A stretch of 64,000 bases of DNA, taken from NCBI RefSeq assembly GCF_004010195.1, contig NC_057718.1:48605859-48669858 (forward strand), in the 5' to 3' direction. Position 1 is the first letter of the stretch. Each line of letters opens with the position of its first letter. Shown piece by piece: positions 2,751 to 53,679 of the stretch. Under the pieces are notes generated by a model. The model ran no database searches. It worked only from the letters and a program-made list of their open reading frames with translations, and had not been told where the DNA came from. The stretch is from Chiloscyllium plagiosum (taxonomy: Eukaryota). The translations under genes and the position numbers were made by a program.

Positions 2751-5700
2751 AAAAGAAAATCTGATATTCATTAATGCAACTGTGATCATACTTGAATGTT
2801 ACTTCTAGACACTGAATTTGTCTGTAAAGTGGCAATCTTAGTCTTTTTTTAAAAGAAAGTCATAAAAAGCCTATAATTTGTCCAGACTATCGTGTTAGAC
2901 CACCAACTAAACTCATCAGGGGAGAACAAATCACATCCATTTATTATTGTCACTTATCTGATGGGAGCTTCATTATCACTGCTTGTTTTACAGGGTTAAA
3001 ATCTGTCAGGCATCCCTGACAGTATATAAACATGCTAACTTGTGGAGGAGGGCCTGTAACTCAGTGTCACCACTGATTATCATGTGTTGGAACAACTGAC
3101 AAGAGGTTAGAACAATTTTTAAATACTTTGCAGTGAAAACTATAGCGTAAACAAAGTGTCATTCCTATTTGCCTTGTTGGTGCTCTAAGACAAATAAAAG
3201 TGATTGAAAAGTACAAACAATAGATGATGGGGCCAAACGACTAAGTTGACATCAGTGCAGACATGATAAAGTTCATGCATGGCTAGACAAGAAGATTCCT
3301 TGCAGAATTCCTACAAGTCCTGCTTGATCCTGTTGAAGATATACAGCTGGTTTCATCAGACATTTGTGTTTCCCCATTAAACTTTATGAGGGGTCGAGTC
3401 CTCAGCTGTTTTTATGCACTAGGACAGGCCATTTTCCTCTGCAAAATTCTGATATATTTCCGTTTTGATCTGCTCACTTCCTTCCTTATTTTGTAATAGC
3501 AAAGTTGCACAGATAACAGTTTAAATTTTGCATCTGTTATTGTTTGCTCTGACTACTATAATGTTTGAAGCTAAATACAGTACACATTTCAAGACAATTA
3601 GAAAGAAAACGAGTCAATGGATGCTTATTATTGACTGTTTGCATGAAGTCATTATTTGCAATAAAATAAAATTAACTGCATAATAACTGCATATTTTAAG
3701 ATATGTTCTTTAAAACTGTACAACAGTCTTGGTTACTTTCATGATACCAAATTGCGAACATAGCTGTTTTTACAAGCACGATTAATTGAACAGGAAATGG
3801 AGATTTTATAATTTGTACAATTTTATTATGTGAACATATTATTATTTGCATTGTTAAAAGAAGTTTTTCTTTCCAAATACACTGTTATTTTGAGCTCAGA
3901 GGCACGCAGGATAAGCCAACTGATTAATTTCATTGTACAACAAAATGATTGCCATGGAAAGTTTATTCTACAAAGCCTTTTAATATGCAATGTAATAATT
4001 AGGTGTGTTACATTTCATGGAGGAACAGGAGATTGGTTCCATGCTCCTGACAGTCCTCCAAGAATTAAACATCAAAGAACACAAAACACTTTAAAGCAAA
4101 AGAAATGGTCACTTTGAATGCAAGGTTACACAGTCACCAGTTTGCTAATATTAATGTTCCCCAAACAAGTATGACAATAATGAAGTAGAGTTACTAGAAT
4201 GGGCACAATTTGTAATCAAACTTGCACATTTTCTGAGATATATAATTCACAAATTTCCATTTAAATGTATTTGTGTATTGTGATAAATTCAAAAACTGGC
4301 ATGAATAACCACACTCAGGTAACATTTAGGAGACAATTTTTGAAAAGACAAAACAATTTTTTCAAAACTTTATTTGATATATTTATGAGGGATAACTGGG
4401 TGCAATTTGATTAATATTATTGAAATGGGAATAAATAATAAATATATAATAAATAGTTAATCAGTGTCAATTCTCCTCTAATGAATTATTCAATTTTACA
4501 TAATTGCAAGTTGCTTTAAAAAAGCAAATTTGATCAGTGGGAGGGCAGCTATCCAGGTTGGGGCACTTGGCACAAAAGCACATTTGCTAGTTACATTGTT
4601 TTACAGTTGTCAATTTTTTTGGCATATTAGAAGATATGTTCCAAAGCCTTCAAAACATTTGTAATAGTCTCCTTTTGCCAAAAAAAACCCTGAAAAGCCT
4701 TGCAGCCCTGTAAATGAGTGTAACTAATGGAAATTCCCAATGCTGAAGCTATCCCGGGGGCATCACTAGTTTTGTTAGTATGACTGGCTTCAAGCTCACT
4801 GTTTTTTAAAGTAGTGCAAAAGATCATGCAAGTTCGAGTTGTACTGGGCATAATTTATGCTTAGAGTTCTGCAATGTTTTGATTTGGTTTGTTCAATGTC
4901 ACACTACATGTACTGAGAAGACAAGCTCAACATAAAAGATACAGCTGTTCAAAGACTGCATCATCTTTTCAATGGCATTAGTTAGGATTAAATGTTGATC
5001 AGGGCACTGGGAAGAACACCTAAGCTCTTTAACATTGTGCAGATCTTTCCTGATCCTTTGGCCATCAGCAAGTGTATCTTGCATCCCTAATTCCTTCTGG
5101 CTGCCAATGTGCTCAACCAACCCCACAGGCATTATGAACATTCCTCCTCTCTGGTTGGCGTTTCTGGCCTGGTGTTTACGAAAACATGCATGGTCTCAGG
5201 TGTAAAGAAAAACAGGAGATCCCGTTTATTTACTTGTTTTTATTCTGCATTTTGCTGCAACCCATTTAGAAGGAAGATGAAAAAGTGTGGGTAGAGAAGC
5301 AACGCAATGGCAGCAACAATTCCAGGACAGATATTATTTCTTAAAGAAAATATTTATGAACATTCCTGAGTGCAAGACCTGAAGCACACTGAGGAAATAG
5401 ATTGTAAAATTCACCAGGGGGATTGAGGCCTAGCATTCTCATGGGCCAGTCTGTCTCATTGCTGACCCTGGCATTGTTTCTATGGTCAGTGGGAGGGCAC
5501 CTATCCAGGTTGGGGCACAAATGTTTTACAGTTGTCAATTTTTTGGCATATTGGAAGATATGTGGGTATTTCTTGCCCCCACCTGCCCTATGGCAAAACG
5601 TATTTGCTTTTTGTAGATGGTCACCCAGATTCCTCCATCCTCATCCAAGATGCCTTTTGTCGCTTGTACAATGGGATGATCTGGTAAAATGTAAAAACAT

Positions 5701-32839: not shown

Positions 32840-33728
32840 AACATAGAACATAGAACATAGAACATAGAACAATACAGCACAGAACAGGCCCTTCGGCCCA
32901 CGATGTTGTGCCGAACTTCTAACCTAGATTAAGTACCCATCCATGTACCTATCCAAATGCTGCTTAAAGGTCGCCAATGATTCCGACTCTACCACTCCCA
33001 CGGGCAGCGCATTCCATGCCCCCACCACTCTCTGGGTAAAGAACCCACCCCTGACATCTCCCCTATACCTTCCACCCTTCACCTTAAATTTATGTCCCCT
33101 TGTAACACTCTGTTGTACCCAGGGAAAAAGTTTCTGACTGTCTACTCGATCTATTCCTCTGATCATCTTATAAACCTCGATCAAGTCACCCCTCATCCTT
33201 CGCCGTTCCAACAAGAAAAGGCCGAGAACTCTCAACCTATCCTCGTACCACTTCCTCTCCATTCCAGGCAACATCCTGGTAAATCATCTCTGCACCCTCT
33301 CCAAAGCTTCCACATCTTTCCAAAAGTGAGGCGACCAGAACTGCACACAGTACACCAAATGTGGCCTAACCAAAGTCCTGTACAGCTGCAACATCACTTC
33401 ACGACTCTTGAATTCAATCCCTCTGCTAATGAACGATAATACACCATAGGCCTTCTTACAAACTCTATCCACCTGAGTGGCAACCTTCAAAGATCTATGT
33501 ACATAGACCCCAAGATCCCTCTGTTCCTCCACCTGACTAAGAACCCTACCATTAACCCTGAATTCCGCATTCTTATTTGTTCTTCCAAAATGGACAACCT
33601 CACACTTGGCAGGATTGAACTCCATCTGCCACTCCTCAGCCCAACTTTGCATCATATCTAAGTCCCTCTGCAGCCAACAACAGCCCTCCTCACTGTCCAC
33701 AACTCCACCTATCTTCGTATCATCTGAC
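32840..33728 (-). mobile_element. Young 5'-truncated CR1 LINE
   Basis: ORFs 33284-33730 and 32924-33274 (DDTKIGGVVDSEEG..LVRPHLVYCVQFWSP..FFTQRVVGAWNALP); (TTCTATG)n tail at 32840-32870. Confidence 0.95.
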
Positions 33729-33822
33729 AAGACAAGAAGATCTCAAGGGGTCTTGCCACAGAGATATCAGAACGCATAGTAAACAGTATACAGTGAGGCA
33801 GCCTCAAAGACTAGAAAATAAC

Positions 33823-34329
33823 TGTTGGGGATGGGTTGAAATTATGCAGTGGGTGACTCATTCGTAGTCGTCCAATTTAGGGAAAATAAATTGTGCCATA
33901 CAAACCTTGAGTTATTGACTGTTTATTCGTGAGCTCACGGGAAGATTCAAGTCGACCTAATGGTCACAAGTCACTCCGATGAGATGCAGAGAGTTGCATG
34001 ATTATATAGGTTACAATCTTTAACAATTAGCAAACTGTTAATTGCAATATAATGAGTAGGCTAGGCACTTTGCCCAGTCACTAGCTTCAGTCACGTAGTA
34101 TCTGGACAGTCTTGATTAGTAGCTGATAAGCAAGAGTTAGTATATAATAGGTTCCCAGGCTGGAAAATAATTTATTTATCAGGCAATAGTACAGCTGCAA
34201 GGCAAACCACCTCACTGAGCCTGGGAAACTACGAGCTTAACAATCAGACACTAATATGAAATTCAAAATGATTTCCAGGCTTTTAATATGTGACAAAAAA
34301 GCTGCTTTAGATCTAACAAATCTCCCACA
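33823..34329 (-). mobile_element. Probable solo LTR (507 bp)
   Basis: Imperfect inverted termini TGTTGGGGAT...ATCTCCCACA; minus-strand TATATAA at ~34005 upstream of AATAAA at ~33925; CpG-richer than flanks; no clean TSD. Confidence 0.5.
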
Positions 34330-34340
34330 AAATTTAACAT

Positions 34341-34453
34341 ACTTTTTTAATCAACCTGTTCAGAGATGTTGCCGCACACCTCTGGAATAAGTGGGATTTG
34401 AACCTTGATCTCCTGCGTAGGAGCACTACCACTGTGCCACAAGATGGCCCTTT
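34341..34453 (-). mobile_element. Short tRNA-headed SINE-like element, copy 1
   Basis: AAAGGGCCATCTTGTGGCACAGTGGTAGTGCTCCTAC..GGTTCAAATCCCACTTATTCCAGAGGTGTGCGGCAACATCTCTGAACAGGTTGATTAAAAAA; A and B boxes; homologous to 50264 and 53133. Confidence 0.8.
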
Positions 34454-34464
34454 AGGCAGCTTGC

Positions 34465-34537
34465 TGTTTCTGCCCAGTTTTGAATTGCAGACCTTTCATG
34501 TGTCAGGTGAAAATACTAACCATTACACTACAGAATC
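34465..34537 (-). pseudogene. tRNA-Val pseudogene
   Basis: 73 nt, ungapped, ~55/73 identical by eye to vertebrate tRNA-Val(CAC) as recalled; many changes at CpG; anticodon now GAC; no CCA. Confidence 0.85.
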
Positions 34538-35269
34538 CATCACCTTTCATTTATTTTACCTCAGGGTAATTGATAATGTATATTATGATTGGATTAAGAT
34601 GCAAGCTAAACTATAAACTTATCTTTAAAATCAAAACAATGTTTCAGAAGTATATATTTTTTCATCAGAATTAAAAAATTTGACATTGCACAGATATTAA
34701 AAGGCCACTGAAGGGTGATTGGTAAATATTATTAACCCATTCGACAAGAGTTTTTACAAGATTAGGCATGGACTTAGAGATTGCAATCTAAATCTGCAGA
34801 CTCTCATAGATTGTAGAATCACTAGCAGCAACTTTTAGATTTTCTTGTTCTCCTGTGCATGTGCAAATTTGCTGACAGTTTCATTGTCATTATCACTGCA
34901 AAATTCTGAATGATTTTTATAGGGTAACTAAGAATAAATTATTTTTACTGTCAGAAGGATCAGTAATGGAGGGGAGTAATTTAAGGTAATTGGCAAAAGA
35001 ACTGAGATGAGAGGATGGGTCTTCTTATTATGAATTATATGAATTATTATGATCTGGAATGCATTGCCTGAAGAGGTGGAGAAATAGATTAAAAAGAATT
35101 GGAGAAATATTTGAAGGAAAGAATAGTATGGTCACAATGTTGAAGGGCAGAGAGGAGATGTTAAGGTGGAGTTAAGGTTAAGGTGGATAAATGTGTCAAA
35201 TGGGTTGGCACGGAACTGATAGGCCAAATGGCATTTTATGGTGTAAGCGTGTGTACTTTCTAACTTGAT

Positions 35270-35855
35270 AGAAGCTTGAGAGCAACTGTTTGAAGATAAA
35301 TCCACATTTGATATGTGGGAGGCTTTTAAAGAAAAGTTGATTAGAGTGCAGGATATATAGGTAGCTGTGAAAATGAGGGATAAAAATGGCAAGATTAGGG
35401 AACCATGGATGACAGGTGAAATGATGAGACTAGATAAGAGGAAAAAGAAAGCATATGCAGGGTCTAGGCGACTGAAAACAGACGAAGCTTTGGAAGAATA
35501 TTGAGAAAGTAGGACCAATCTGAGGAATTTAGAGGGCTAAAAGAGTTCATGAAATAGCTTTAGCAAATAGGTTTAAGGAAAATCCCAAAGCTTTTTATTG
35601 TATGTAAGGAGCAAGAGGGTAACTAGAGAAAGGGTTAGCCCACTAAAGGACAAAGGAGGGAAGTTATGTGTGGAGTCAGAGAAAGTGGGTGAGATTCTCA
35701 ATTAGTACTTTGTGTCAGTATTGACCGAGGAGAGGGACATGACGAATGTTGAGGCTAGGGATAGCTATTTAATTGCTGTAGGTCAAGTTGGCATAGGGAG
35801 GGAGGAAGTGTTGGGTATTCTAAAAGGCATCAAGGAGGACAAGTACCCAGATCTA
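35270..35855 (+). mobile_element. CR1 ORF2 internal fragment (EN-RT linker)
   Basis: Decayed WEAFKEKLIRVQ..REPWMT..KENPKAFY..PLKDKGGKLCVES..; cut by the Penelope cluster. Confidence 0.8.
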
Positions 35856-35857
35856 TT

Positions 35858-36945
35858 AGGAGGAAGTGAGGATTGCAGATGCTTAGAGGTCAGAGTCGAG
35901 AATGTGGTGCTGGAAAAGGACAGCATGTCAGGCAGCATCCAAGGAGAGGAGAATCGATGTTTCAGGCATAAGCCCTTCATCCTGATGAAGGGTTTATGCC
36001 TGAAACGTCAATTTTCCTACTTCATTCCTGATGAAGGACTTATGCCCGAAACATCGTTTCTCCTGCTCATTCTTGAGGAAGGGCTTATGCCCGAAACATT
36101 GATTCTTCTGCCTGACCTGCTATTCTTTTCCAGACCACAATCTTGACTTTGATCTCCAACATCTACAGTCCTCACTTTCTCCTAGTTGATTTTAACCCTA
36201 CTGCGAAGCGTCTTCCAACGATGCTTACCTTGAAGACATTCTCCTCCTCTCTCTACAAGGATTCCAGTGAGTTTCTCCCTCACTGCACCCCCCAGGTCAT
36301 TTCCTCTGCACTGAAGCTCTTCAGCCACATCCTGAAGCACACTCGCTACCACAGCCACATTCCCTTCCTCAGTGACTGCCTACGGAACTGAAATCATTCC
36401 TGATGAAGGGTTTATGTCCGCAATATTGATTTTCCTGCTCCTCAGATGCTACCTGACCTGCTGTGCTTTTCCAGCACCATACTCTTGACTCTGATCTCCA
36501 GCATCTGCAGCCCTCACTTTCTCTGAGTTGATTTTAACCCTACTGTGAATCCTCTTCCAAGGATGCCTACCTTGAAGAAGTTATCCTCCTCTCTCTATGA
36601 GGATCTCAGTGAGTCTCTCTCTCTCTCTCTCACTCTCACTGCACCCTCCTCCCCCCACCCCCCCCAGGTCATCTCCTCTGCCCTGAAGCTCTTTAGCCAC
36701 GTCCTGAAGCAAGCTCACTACCACAGCCACATTCCCTTCCTCAGTGACTGCCTACGGAACTGAAATCATTCCTGATGAAGGGTTTATGTCCGCAATATTG
36801 ATTTTCCTGCTCCTCAGATGCTACCTGACCTGCTGTGCTTTTCCAGCACCATACTCTTGACTCTGATCTCCAGCATCTGCAGCCCTCACTTTCTCTGAGT
36901 TGATTTTAACCCTACTGTGAATCCTCTTCCAAGGATGCCTACCTT
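35858..36945 (+). mobile_element. Penelope pLTR cluster: inverted pLTR, tandem hammerhead-like cores, tandem pLTR plus ORF-start units
   Basis: Inverted arm 35858-35980; CTGATGA..GAAAC cores at 35982 and 36028, mutated cores at 36073, 36400 and 36772; peptide SSSLYKD..QVISSALKLFSH.LK..YHSHIPFLSDCLRN occurs twice. Confidence 0.8.
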
Positions 36946-37045
36946 GGCCTCTCGAAAATCCTCAGTTCATCCAACTCCAGTTCCAGTTCCCTAACTCGTT
37001 CGGTGAGGATCAGGATCTGACTGCATTTCCTGCAGAAGGTGTTGG
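36946..37045 (-). mobile_element. CR1 ORF1 fragment (Cys motif plus leucine zipper)
   Basis: FCRKCSQILILTERVRELELELDELRI. Confidence 0.7.
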
Positions 37046-42244: not shown

Positions 42245-42448
42245 GGAGAAAGTGAGGTCTGCAGGTGCTGGAGATCAAAGTTGAAACTTTATTGCTGGAA
42301 CAGCACAGCAGGTCAGGCAGCATCCAGGGAACAGGAGATTCGACGTTTCGGGCACAGGCCGAAGAAGGGCCTGTGCCCGAAACGTCGAATCTCCTGTTCC
42401 CTGGATGCTGCCTGACCTGCTGTGCTGTTCCAGCAATAAAGTTTCAAC
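42245..42448. mobile_element. Penelope-derived perfect fold-back insertion
   Basis: 82-bp perfect inverted arms 42279-42360 and 42368-42449, 7-nt loop; 14-bp TSD tcaaaattctaaga at 42231 and 42449. Confidence 0.92.
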
Positions 42449-43788
42449 TCAAAATTCTAAGAACTGCTTCCCTAATGGCATTGTGGGTCTACCTACGCCA
42501 GATTGACAGTATACCAACCACTTCAAGGATAATGTAGAAGAGGCAATAAAAACTATCCTAGCCAGACACATCCACATTTCGTGAATAAGTGAAAACTAGC
42601 AGCTAGAGTAAAGATGGAGTGGAATGATGGAGTGGAGTGGCTGAATTTCCCCAGCTGTCTGGAGTTCGGTTTGGAGACAGAGATGTTAGGGAAGCAATAC
42701 AATTCTTCATTGAGCCAGCTTCCTGAGGCTGTACCATATCTTGTGAATTACTCTTGTCAAAGGTATCTTTCATTTACCTATTTCTTAGCTCAATCCAAAC
42801 TGTTTTGACATCTTATCTTCCAAGCCAAGATAACTTTCCATTACAATATTGATCTCATACTAAATTAGTAGAATTAACCAACCTCTGGTTCAATTTCTAT
42901 TATGTAGATGAAACGGTAAACACTTAATTAAAGATGAGAAGGATGTTTCAGGATCGCATACATATTGCTTTGGGTATTGTAATCAGTGATTCCCCTCAAG
43001 GCAATCTTTCATTTAGATATATGTGGATTAATGATTGTGCTGCAAAGTTATGAATATGTATTTTATTTGCAGCAAAACCAAATTGTCCACTAATTAAATA
43101 AGCAGTAGAAGTTTGACCTGGTTCTGGTTGACTTGAATCAACAACAGGAAATAGTTTCTAATTCAAGAAGCATTCCCTATGAGGCTCAGGTTAAATATGG
43201 AGGATGTAAATGGCACTGGCTAGTGTAGTAGAAATTATCCTGAGACTTACATTGAGGTTGAATGGTCAGAACACTAAGGAATTGACTTGTACTGCTGTAG
43301 ATATGGAGTATAATCTCACTGCTTTTTCCATAAATAAAGGATCTGAACATTTACAAATAGCCGTTCATGTTTGCAAAAACATAATAAAAGGCTTTATTTT
43401 GCTGCTGCACTTTTCATCTCATCATTCCTGAAGTATTAACTCATGCCAATTCACCACTTTAAGAGTATGGTTGCTGTACGTTTCAATGCACTTTTCAATT
43501 GTTCACTGATCATGTTCAAGCCAAATCAGTGAGATTGAGTCACCATGTAACAGAAGATGGGTATCATTGAAAAGTGCAAACCTATCCTAATCAGGCTTTC
43601 ACATAATACCATTTTTCCAGGTGGGGCACTGACTAGCAATCAGAAATGGGAACCTTGACTGAGATTTTTCTGCTCCCTAGGTCAGAGATACAGAAGACAA
43701 TTATAGCACCCAGCTGAGATCAACAACTGAGGTGCAGTCTGTACAACCAACTAAAATCTTCCTTGTCCAAACAGCTCATTTTCATATT

Positions 43789-50263: not shown

Positions 50264-50375
50264 ACAGTGCTTTTGTGTGCAAAGGTAGTGTCCCTATCTC
50301 TCAGCCAGGAGGCCTAGGTTCAAGTCCCACCTGCTCTAGAGATGTGTAAGAGTATGTCTTAATTTAAAATATCTA
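50264..50375 (+). mobile_element. Short tRNA-headed SINE-like element, copy 2
   Basis: ggtagtgtccctatctctcagccaggaggcctaggttcaagtcccacctgctctagagatgtgtaa...aaaatatcta; homologous to copies 1 and 3. Confidence 0.75.
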
Positions 50376-53132: not shown

Positions 53133-53253
53133 GATATTTTCTAACGACCCTGTTACAGAGATGTTATGATACACTTCTGGAGCAGTTGGGACCTGAACTT
53201 AGATCTCCTGACTCAGAGAAAGTGACACTACCATTGCACCATAGGGTCCCTTT
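53133..53253 (-). mobile_element. Short tRNA-headed SINE-like element, copy 3
   Basis: AAAGGGACCCTATGGTGCAATGGTAGTGTCACTTTCTCTGAGTCAGGAGATCTAAGTTCAGGTCCCAACTGCTCCAGAAGTGTATCATAACATCTCTGTAACAGGGTCGTTAGAAAATATC. Confidence 0.8.
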
Positions 53254-53344
53254 ATGGAACAGTTCACAAATTTGCATGTCATCCTTGCACAGAGGCCATG
53301 CAAACCTTCCCAGTATCATTACAATTTTAGTATAGGTGCTGCTG
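53253..53344 (-). pseudogene. U6 snRNA pseudogene (U6 nt ~11-102)
   Basis: CAGCAGCACCTATACTAAAATTGTAATGATACTGGGAAGGTTTGCATGGCCTCTGTGCAAGGATGACATGCAAATTTGTGAACTGTTCCATA; ungapped, ~78/92 identical to recalled vertebrate U6; ACAGAGA box mutated to ACTGGGA. Confidence 0.93.
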
Positions 53345-53679
53345 GGGTCTTCTCTGACACTGGCATCCACAGCTAGGATGGAAGAAATTTACACTGATAT
53401 GATAATAACATAAATTTTATGCAGATACGATAAAGTTATGAATGTTAAGAATGTGCTGTAATTGGTAGAAACAGGTGAGTGATGGAGGTGAGGTCCATTG
53501 ATCAAAATATTGTGATAATGGATTGGAACCCTCAAATACAATTGGCATGTTTAATTCTTCAAAGACAAAATGATGGCAAGTATAAATTGAGTAGTTGTTT
53601 AGCAAAACATTTGATGTGGAATTATACAATATAACATCTAAAATATCAAAGAAACTTCAAACAGATTGAATGATGATTT

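Follow-up and report, generated by a model that had tools for sequence, protein, structure and literature searches.

Three copies of a tRNA-derived SINE of ~125 nt lie in the window, which is the whole stretch of 64,000 nt of Chiloscyllium plagiosum DNA analysed here. The copy of main interest is part of a fusion at 34331-34537, on the minus strand. This SINE is full length (34331..34450, by profile match), and it is preceded by an AAA linker (34451..34453), an 11-nt 3' trailer read from the sequence (34454..34464) and, as the head of the fusion, a decayed full-length tRNA-Val copy (34465..34537), all on the minus strand. The parts listed in the first-pass annotation, i.e. a tRNA-Val pseudogene without CCA, an 11-nt trailer, AAAGGG and the SINE, are all present. 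The small RNA lies in sense, directly 5' of a SINE that keeps its 3' end.

The head has 73 nt and no CCA, and differs from the tRNA-Val gene L099 at 16 of 73 bases, many of them at CpG. Its Rfam tRNA score of 26.1 bits falls short of the gathering score (29), and ARAGORN called no tRNA over the whole window. The best non-identical matches of the head in the genome are tRNA-Val genes. As for the SINE, it aligns to the family consensus with 102 identities, 19 mismatches and 7 gaps.

The trailer likely derives from a pre-tRNA. A match to the trailer found before TTTT in a real tRNA-Val gene had been suggested as a check, and none appeared: no tRNA-Val gene carrying it was found in the genome at up to 2 mismatches, and ARAGORN made no tRNA call at the six matches with 2 mismatches. 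In a related species the trailer ends with one extra T, as seen in a contig comparison. The AAA linker may be the purine start of the SINE itself, a short oligo(A) or a few untemplated bases. Contigs from three organisms (A, B and C) bridge the tRNA/SINE junction, and the fusion is therefore real DNA. No RNA data set was among those listed as carrying the sequence. Contigs of run X1 depart from the assembly within the SINE (34407-34410) and at the CR1 end of the surrounding block (33739), which suggests an insertion polymorphism together with a different allele at the source locus.

The SINE had also been reported at a U6 locus and as a third copy, and both were recovered. The first is an independent U6 + SINE fusion at 53133-53360 on the minus strand (Rfam U6, 61.7 bits; its parts were delimited at 53137..53347), found at a single locus, with only one 100% match among the 40 matches scored. 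The second is a lone copy at 50268-50362 on the plus strand (profile match), 3'-incomplete and with no small-RNA head. The window also holds ends that we take to be Penelope-like, with motifs that we take to be hammerhead-like, as well as a 372-nt tandem duplication and an 82-nt perfect inverted repeat (35976-36113, 36394-36440, 36766-36812 and 42279-42449). The names V-SINE/HE1-like, CR1, Tx1 and Penelope are used throughout as presumptive labels, given in part by eye and without a repeat library.

The block around the fusion

The fusion sits in a 3.2-kb block (33728..36946, no strand assigned) that very likely fills an assembly gap inside a young CR1 and comes from another locus. On one side lies a young CR1-type LINE that is native here, represented by its 3' end with a short tandem tail (32840..33727, minus strand, with about 3-5% differences between sites). 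On the other side the same copy continues with a 5' piece from ORF1 (36947..37045, minus strand), which aligns to ORF1 in other young CR1s. The junction between CR1 tail and flank is reached by a contig of run X1, and an X1 contig spans the outer junction of the ORF1 piece, with ~31 letters on its shorter side. No contig across 36946/36947 was found among the matches listed, at a site swamped by repeats where this absence carries no evidential weight.

The SINE stretch and the tRNA each have 100% matches at 11 places, on 8 large and 3 small contigs. At all 11 sites (the window block and L031-L040) the shared block ends in the CR1 3' piece, while its 5' ends vary. This arrangement, with near-identical copies, a common CR1 3' tail and variable 5' ends, was first read as a real, very young SVA-like composite retroposon with the tRNA-SINE as cargo. 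That reading was rejected on divergence, length tracking, N runs and depth, and we now regard it as very improbable.

In terms of divergence, copies that include a given segment of those compared over 33728-35880 show the same sequence, except for 2 single mismatches, whereas the CR1 3' pieces of the same sites differ by ~3-5%, and do so to within about 50 nt of the junction. In terms of length, the CR1 5' piece abuts the block in 7 of the 11 sites, and there the sum of CR1 position and block length is near constant (3,884-4,067 in five sites, about 3,400 in two), so that the length of the fill follows how much of the CR1 middle is absent (r = -0.94, n = 7). Among other young CR1 copies, 19 of 20 have an N run, mostly in the same middle part, with the caveat that some of these N runs may not be gaps. 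Finally, contig depth (a rough measure) was compared in four runs, which come from three organisms, and lies near the level of unique sequence: block versus unique flank gave 12.6 versus 12.3, 25.2 versus 13.5-30.6, 5.9 versus 6.0 and 8.1 versus 21.

An identical block between diverged CR1 pieces, a length that tracks the missing part, N runs and single-copy depth led us to conclude gap filling. The sequence put into the CR1 gaps is very likely the flank of a single truncated CR1. The position of the fusion in the window is then very likely an assembly artefact, with 33728-36946 copied from another locus, and the same most likely applies to the 11 identical copies, which would then not be an amplified family. 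Apparent 'families' of one cargo repeated without change inside young CR1s can be errors of gap filling in this assembly, and a read-depth check is warranted. The twentieth young CR1 copy (L317) has a foreign middle and looks like a second case of gap filling; it failed as full CR1 reference for that reason, and L326 was used.

Small-RNA heads across the genome

We found 17 independent fusions of a small RNA with this SINE. Nine have a U6 head, seven a tRNA head (Val three times, Thr, Phe, Lys and one Phe-like) and one a U2 head, which is a Pol II RNA. Each of the 17 has its own junction, and their origins are independent.

A 16-nt core of the SINE occurs 1,949 times in the genome as an exact match, compared with 3 for the control. 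A U6-end motif lies upstream of 25 of these 1,949 copies, and two of them are true U6 fusions. A T-loop pattern search before the SINE gave 21 matches, of which three are tRNA fusions; the Rfam scan took in 20 of the 21 and confirmed one. Copy number is around 30,000, a very rough figure from 3 copies in 366 kb.

The rate of heads was taken from 103 untargeted copies, fetched without selection for a head. Two of them carry a tRNA head and none a U6 or U2 head, a rate that reflects just 2 events at limited sensitivity. By our own estimate chance would give about 2 in 10,000, since Rfam scans suggest fewer than one free tRNA-like copy per 100 kb. Small RNAs are enriched upstream of the SINE, far above chance, as the first-pass annotation had supposed. 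Its count of two in three copies following a Pol III RNA is true of the window but not of the genome, where the untargeted rate is 2/103. Heads are present on roughly 1-4% of the copies of this SINE, and the process is general in the genome.

Rfam scans of 40 SINE loci chosen by position showed no tRNA or U6; BLAST and profile searches found heads in two of these loci (L247 and L219), which Rfam had missed, and the Rfam blank was therefore not used. A pattern joining the tRNA-Val end to the SINE start had 19 matches, none with a tRNA by Rfam. ARAGORN at -ps70 returned pure noise and was dropped. As for non-identical tRNA-Val matches, 23 were viewed: 18 look like genes and five (four distinct) have a SINE after them.

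The SINE is also strongly clustered. Another copy lies directly upstream on the same strand in 13 of the 103 untargeted copies, and on the opposite strand in 4. Two pairs of loci on different contigs, L107/L108 (C17:29304557 and C11:34896717) and L119/L120, are identical over the viewed stretch including their flanks, and are either duplications or further assembly errors.

Small-RNA heads are not limited to this SINE. The family-search loci contain 48 distinct U6 copies, 4 gene-like and 44 non-gene, and 29 of the 44 lie no more than 75 nt from a retroelement or tRNA. The partner is a V-SINE-like element in 19 cases (two of them relabelled by eye from CR1), Penelope in 5, CR1 in 3, and tRNA-Lys and this SINE in one each. 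Several further U6 partners look Tx1- or Penelope-like by eye. Upstream of the V-SINE-like element, a pattern search gave 16 matches, of which 9 are tRNAs above the Rfam cut-off; the pattern demanded TT before the V-SINE, so these matches are uninformative on T-runs. U2 served as a Pol II control: of 30 copies viewed, out of 47 matches, 11 are fused, one of them to this SINE. Two parts of the first-pass annotation do not hold against these counts. A system specific to this SINE does not fit with 19 of the 44 non-gene U6 copies next to a V-SINE-like element and one next to this SINE, and specificity for Pol III RNAs does not fit with the fused U2 copies.

Chains of small RNAs were seen as well. 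These are U6-tRNA-Lys (L151, G000:C17:47236055), a 5S-like end followed by U6 and CR1 (L153, C4:47462435), in which the 5S-U6 chain was identified by eye, U6-U6-Penelope (L176, C31:9507364-9507615) and tRNA-tRNA-V-SINE (L348, C19:5620844). They suggest serial jumps. Separately, five U6 copies (L149, L152, L157 and L163; C21:7.856-7.859 Mb and C89242) have in common an unusual tail of ~100 nt ending in poly(A), with similar flanks, and are possibly a small U6-headed or target-specific family.

The junctions vary from one fusion to the next. Outside the window most fusions have a T-run, 0-2 purines and GGG, and the U2 + SINE fusion reads AAGGG. At least three T are found at the junction in 7 of 9 tRNA fusions not chosen for a T-run. 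The T-AAAGGG junction shared by the two window fusions had been taken as a rule, which fails: the 15 fusions from elsewhere in the genome all lack it, while among 25 lone copies with intact GGG two start with AAA-GGG and 14 with A-GGG. A-rich linkers also occur before other partners (L151, L153 and L158). The shared junction is best read as chance combined with the purine start of the SINE, to which a short oligo(A) may add.

Probable capture of RNA and the competing explanations

Gene flanks are missing from the heads. None of six fused tRNA-Val copies, the window copy included, matches the upstream flanks of six tRNA-Val genes, and these gene flanks match one another. Among the 48 U6 copies, a TATA-like box is present only at the 4 gene-like ones. 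At the 3' side precursor sequence is kept. The tRNA heads keep their trailers up to oligo(T), and the trailer of L109 matches the genes L093/L099 up to the first T4 (TTTT). U6 heads (L184, L177) and U2 heads (L358, L359, L361) have gene-matching 3' extensions of variable length. The U6 retrocopies L184, L177 and L173 extend past the first T4 and match the downstream flank of the U6 genes L144-L147 (C25:39.3-39.5 Mb); judged from this match, they appear to be copies of read-through U6 precursors.

Duplications that enclose the whole fusion were clear in 2 of the 14 cases tested, with 14 nt in L049 and 13 nt in L299 (control maximum score 6). None is visible around either window fusion. No empty orthologous site was seen, the fusion being present in all three species compared. 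Missing upstream flanks, trailers kept up to oligo(T) and duplications around the whole fusion fit RNA capture during reverse transcription. The evidence favours capture during retrotransposition, pre-tRNAs included, and this partly supports the earlier idea of a systematic addition of Pol III RNA to the SINE 5' end. As a generator of Pol III pseudogenes and new SINE heads, the process does make one-off fusions, but among those seen with this SINE none had spread to form a new family. No amplified composite family sharing one head and junction was found, and the other tRNA-Val fusions (L092, L299) differ.

Our preferred explanation, at a probability of about 0.6, is an end-to-end jump, in which a LINE reverse transcriptase leaves the SINE 5' end and continues on a nascent RNA from its 3' end. 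The enzyme would copy the SINE RNA up to its 5' end and then jump onto the 3' end of a nascent pre-tRNA, where untemplated bases of the cDNA would pair with the last bases of the acceptor RNA. tRNA-Val, trailer and SINE would then land in one insertion, of which no duplication remains around the window copy. Observed are the fusion, its enrichment, the variety of heads and partners, junctions that differ and the lack of gene flanks; the jump, the base pairing, the enzyme and the single-event origin are what we infer. The biochemistry invoked for the jump is borrowed from R2, whose reverse transcriptase depends on untemplated addition and can pass from one template to a separate one (PMC8857657), and not from a shark CR1 or L2 enzyme.

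The DNA by itself is compatible with jumping as well as with RNA ligation, in which the two RNAs would be joined first by an RtcB-type reaction and the fused RNA then retrotransposed via the SINE tail. The 5' end of a SINE RNA, as a Pol III transcript, should carry a triphosphate. RtcB requires a 5'-OH and a cyclic phosphate (PMC6789731). Most SINE partners are full length at the 5' end, with the heads joined to an intact 5' start, and pre-tRNA trailers and extended U2 should end in a 3'-OH and not in a cyclic phosphate. Since such ends would be poorly joined by RtcB, the jump is favoured. Ligation has been demonstrated for human U6/L1 (PMC6789731), and many shark U6 copies end in T4-T6 abutting 5'-truncated LINE pieces. 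It may explain part of the U6 set, above all U6 joined to truncated LINEs, and as a general account we consider it unlikely.

Insertion of the SINE into DNA at the Pol III terminators of existing genes or pseudogenes, offered as the alternative in the first-pass annotation, is considerably less probable still. The T-runs at the tRNA junctions are what it would predict. The heads, however, have neither gene flanks nor TATA boxes, many U6 heads are 5'-truncated, U2 is fused although it has no such terminator, and the duplications enclose head and SINE together. The 18 gene-like tRNA-Val matches and 4 U6 genes viewed have no insertion at their terminators. A fixed insertion site within or behind intact genes whose flanks are preserved, as in Tx1-type elements and Dada, which we take to target multicopy small-RNA genes, was not found here.

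Slightly weaker again is retrotransposition of read-through transcripts running from a small-RNA gene into a SINE just downstream, which would account for the genomic trailer sequence kept by some heads but not for the same U6 or U2 trailer joining a SINE at several different points, nor for the intact T-run that usually separates the parts, and which lacks a source gene with an adjoining SINE among the loci viewed.

Known chimeras and the birth of SINEs

The addition of small RNAs to retroelements is not new in itself. Chimeras of U6 with SINE, L2, RTE and CR1 elements are described in platypus, lizard, opossum and turkey, and have been suggested as a source of new SINEs (Doucet et al. 2015, PMC4476161). 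The stringent L2 systems of that survey (platypus Mon-1, lizard AnolisSINE2) show 5'-truncated U6 and short or absent duplications, with one CR1 case in turkey. The fusions reported here are the same in having a small RNA in sense before a SINE or LINE, and the claim of a new system cannot stand as it was made. They differ from the survey, which deals with snRNAs and includes no shark, in that they also involve trailer-bearing pre-tRNAs of full length, U2 with extensions and chains (U6-tRNA-Lys, 5S-U6-CR1).

Human tRNA/LINE-1 chimeras are known from 21 loci, mostly as antisense tRNA halves for which twin priming was proposed (PMC11838501). There too a tRNA is co-inserted with a non-LTR element and duplications surround the whole; unlike the tRNAs described in that paper, those found here are full length, in sense, trailer-bearing and without CCA. 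The RtcB-ligated U6/L1 chimeras (Moldovan et al. 2019, PMC6789731) share with ours a U6 that ends in a T-run and is joined to retroelement RNA, but the end chemistry described for them would not suit a pre-tRNA and an intact SINE 5' end.

The addition of an RNA head is also a known route to new families, as in SINEU and the 5S- or 7SL-headed SINEs (PMC4494074, PMC7245038, PMC5786205). These are thought to have started by the same kind of 5' addition through a template switch. As presented in those papers they are amplified families with one shared junction, whereas the copies described here are one-off retrocopies. Finally, retropseudogenes of pre-tRNA (Schmitz et al. 2004, as cited in PMC4476161) show that a pre-tRNA can be a template for retrotransposition, implying nuclear recruitment. 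Those copies are L1-made and the citing text mentions no SINE partner, while ours are fused to a SINE. In the literature searched, mostly open-access main texts, we could not find a description of sense full-length pre-tRNA/SINE chimeras or of shark cases. Capture of U6 by SINEs is thus already known, and full-length pre-tRNA heads in sense are apparently undescribed in that literature.

In the standard model of SINE birth, a tRNA is joined to a retroelement tail by template switching. To our knowledge, one-off intermediates with a tRNA head have rarely been shown. Many such fusions are found in this genome, and their precursor trailers are intact, an indication of nuclear capture; the trailer-bearing heads make jumping and ligation distinguishable in a test of end chemistry.

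More broadly, shark non-LTR reverse transcriptases might routinely end insertion by jumping to any nascent nuclear RNA whose 3' end is free. A few percent of SINE insertions would in this way acquire a head made of full-length pre-tRNA, U6 or U2, at times as a chain. We hold this wider view tentatively, at a little under even odds. If it is true, fossil pre-tRNAs would number in the hundreds to thousands in the genome and would preserve a record of trailers, points of termination and oligoadenylated intermediates, and new SINEs would have a constant supply of ready-made Pol III heads.
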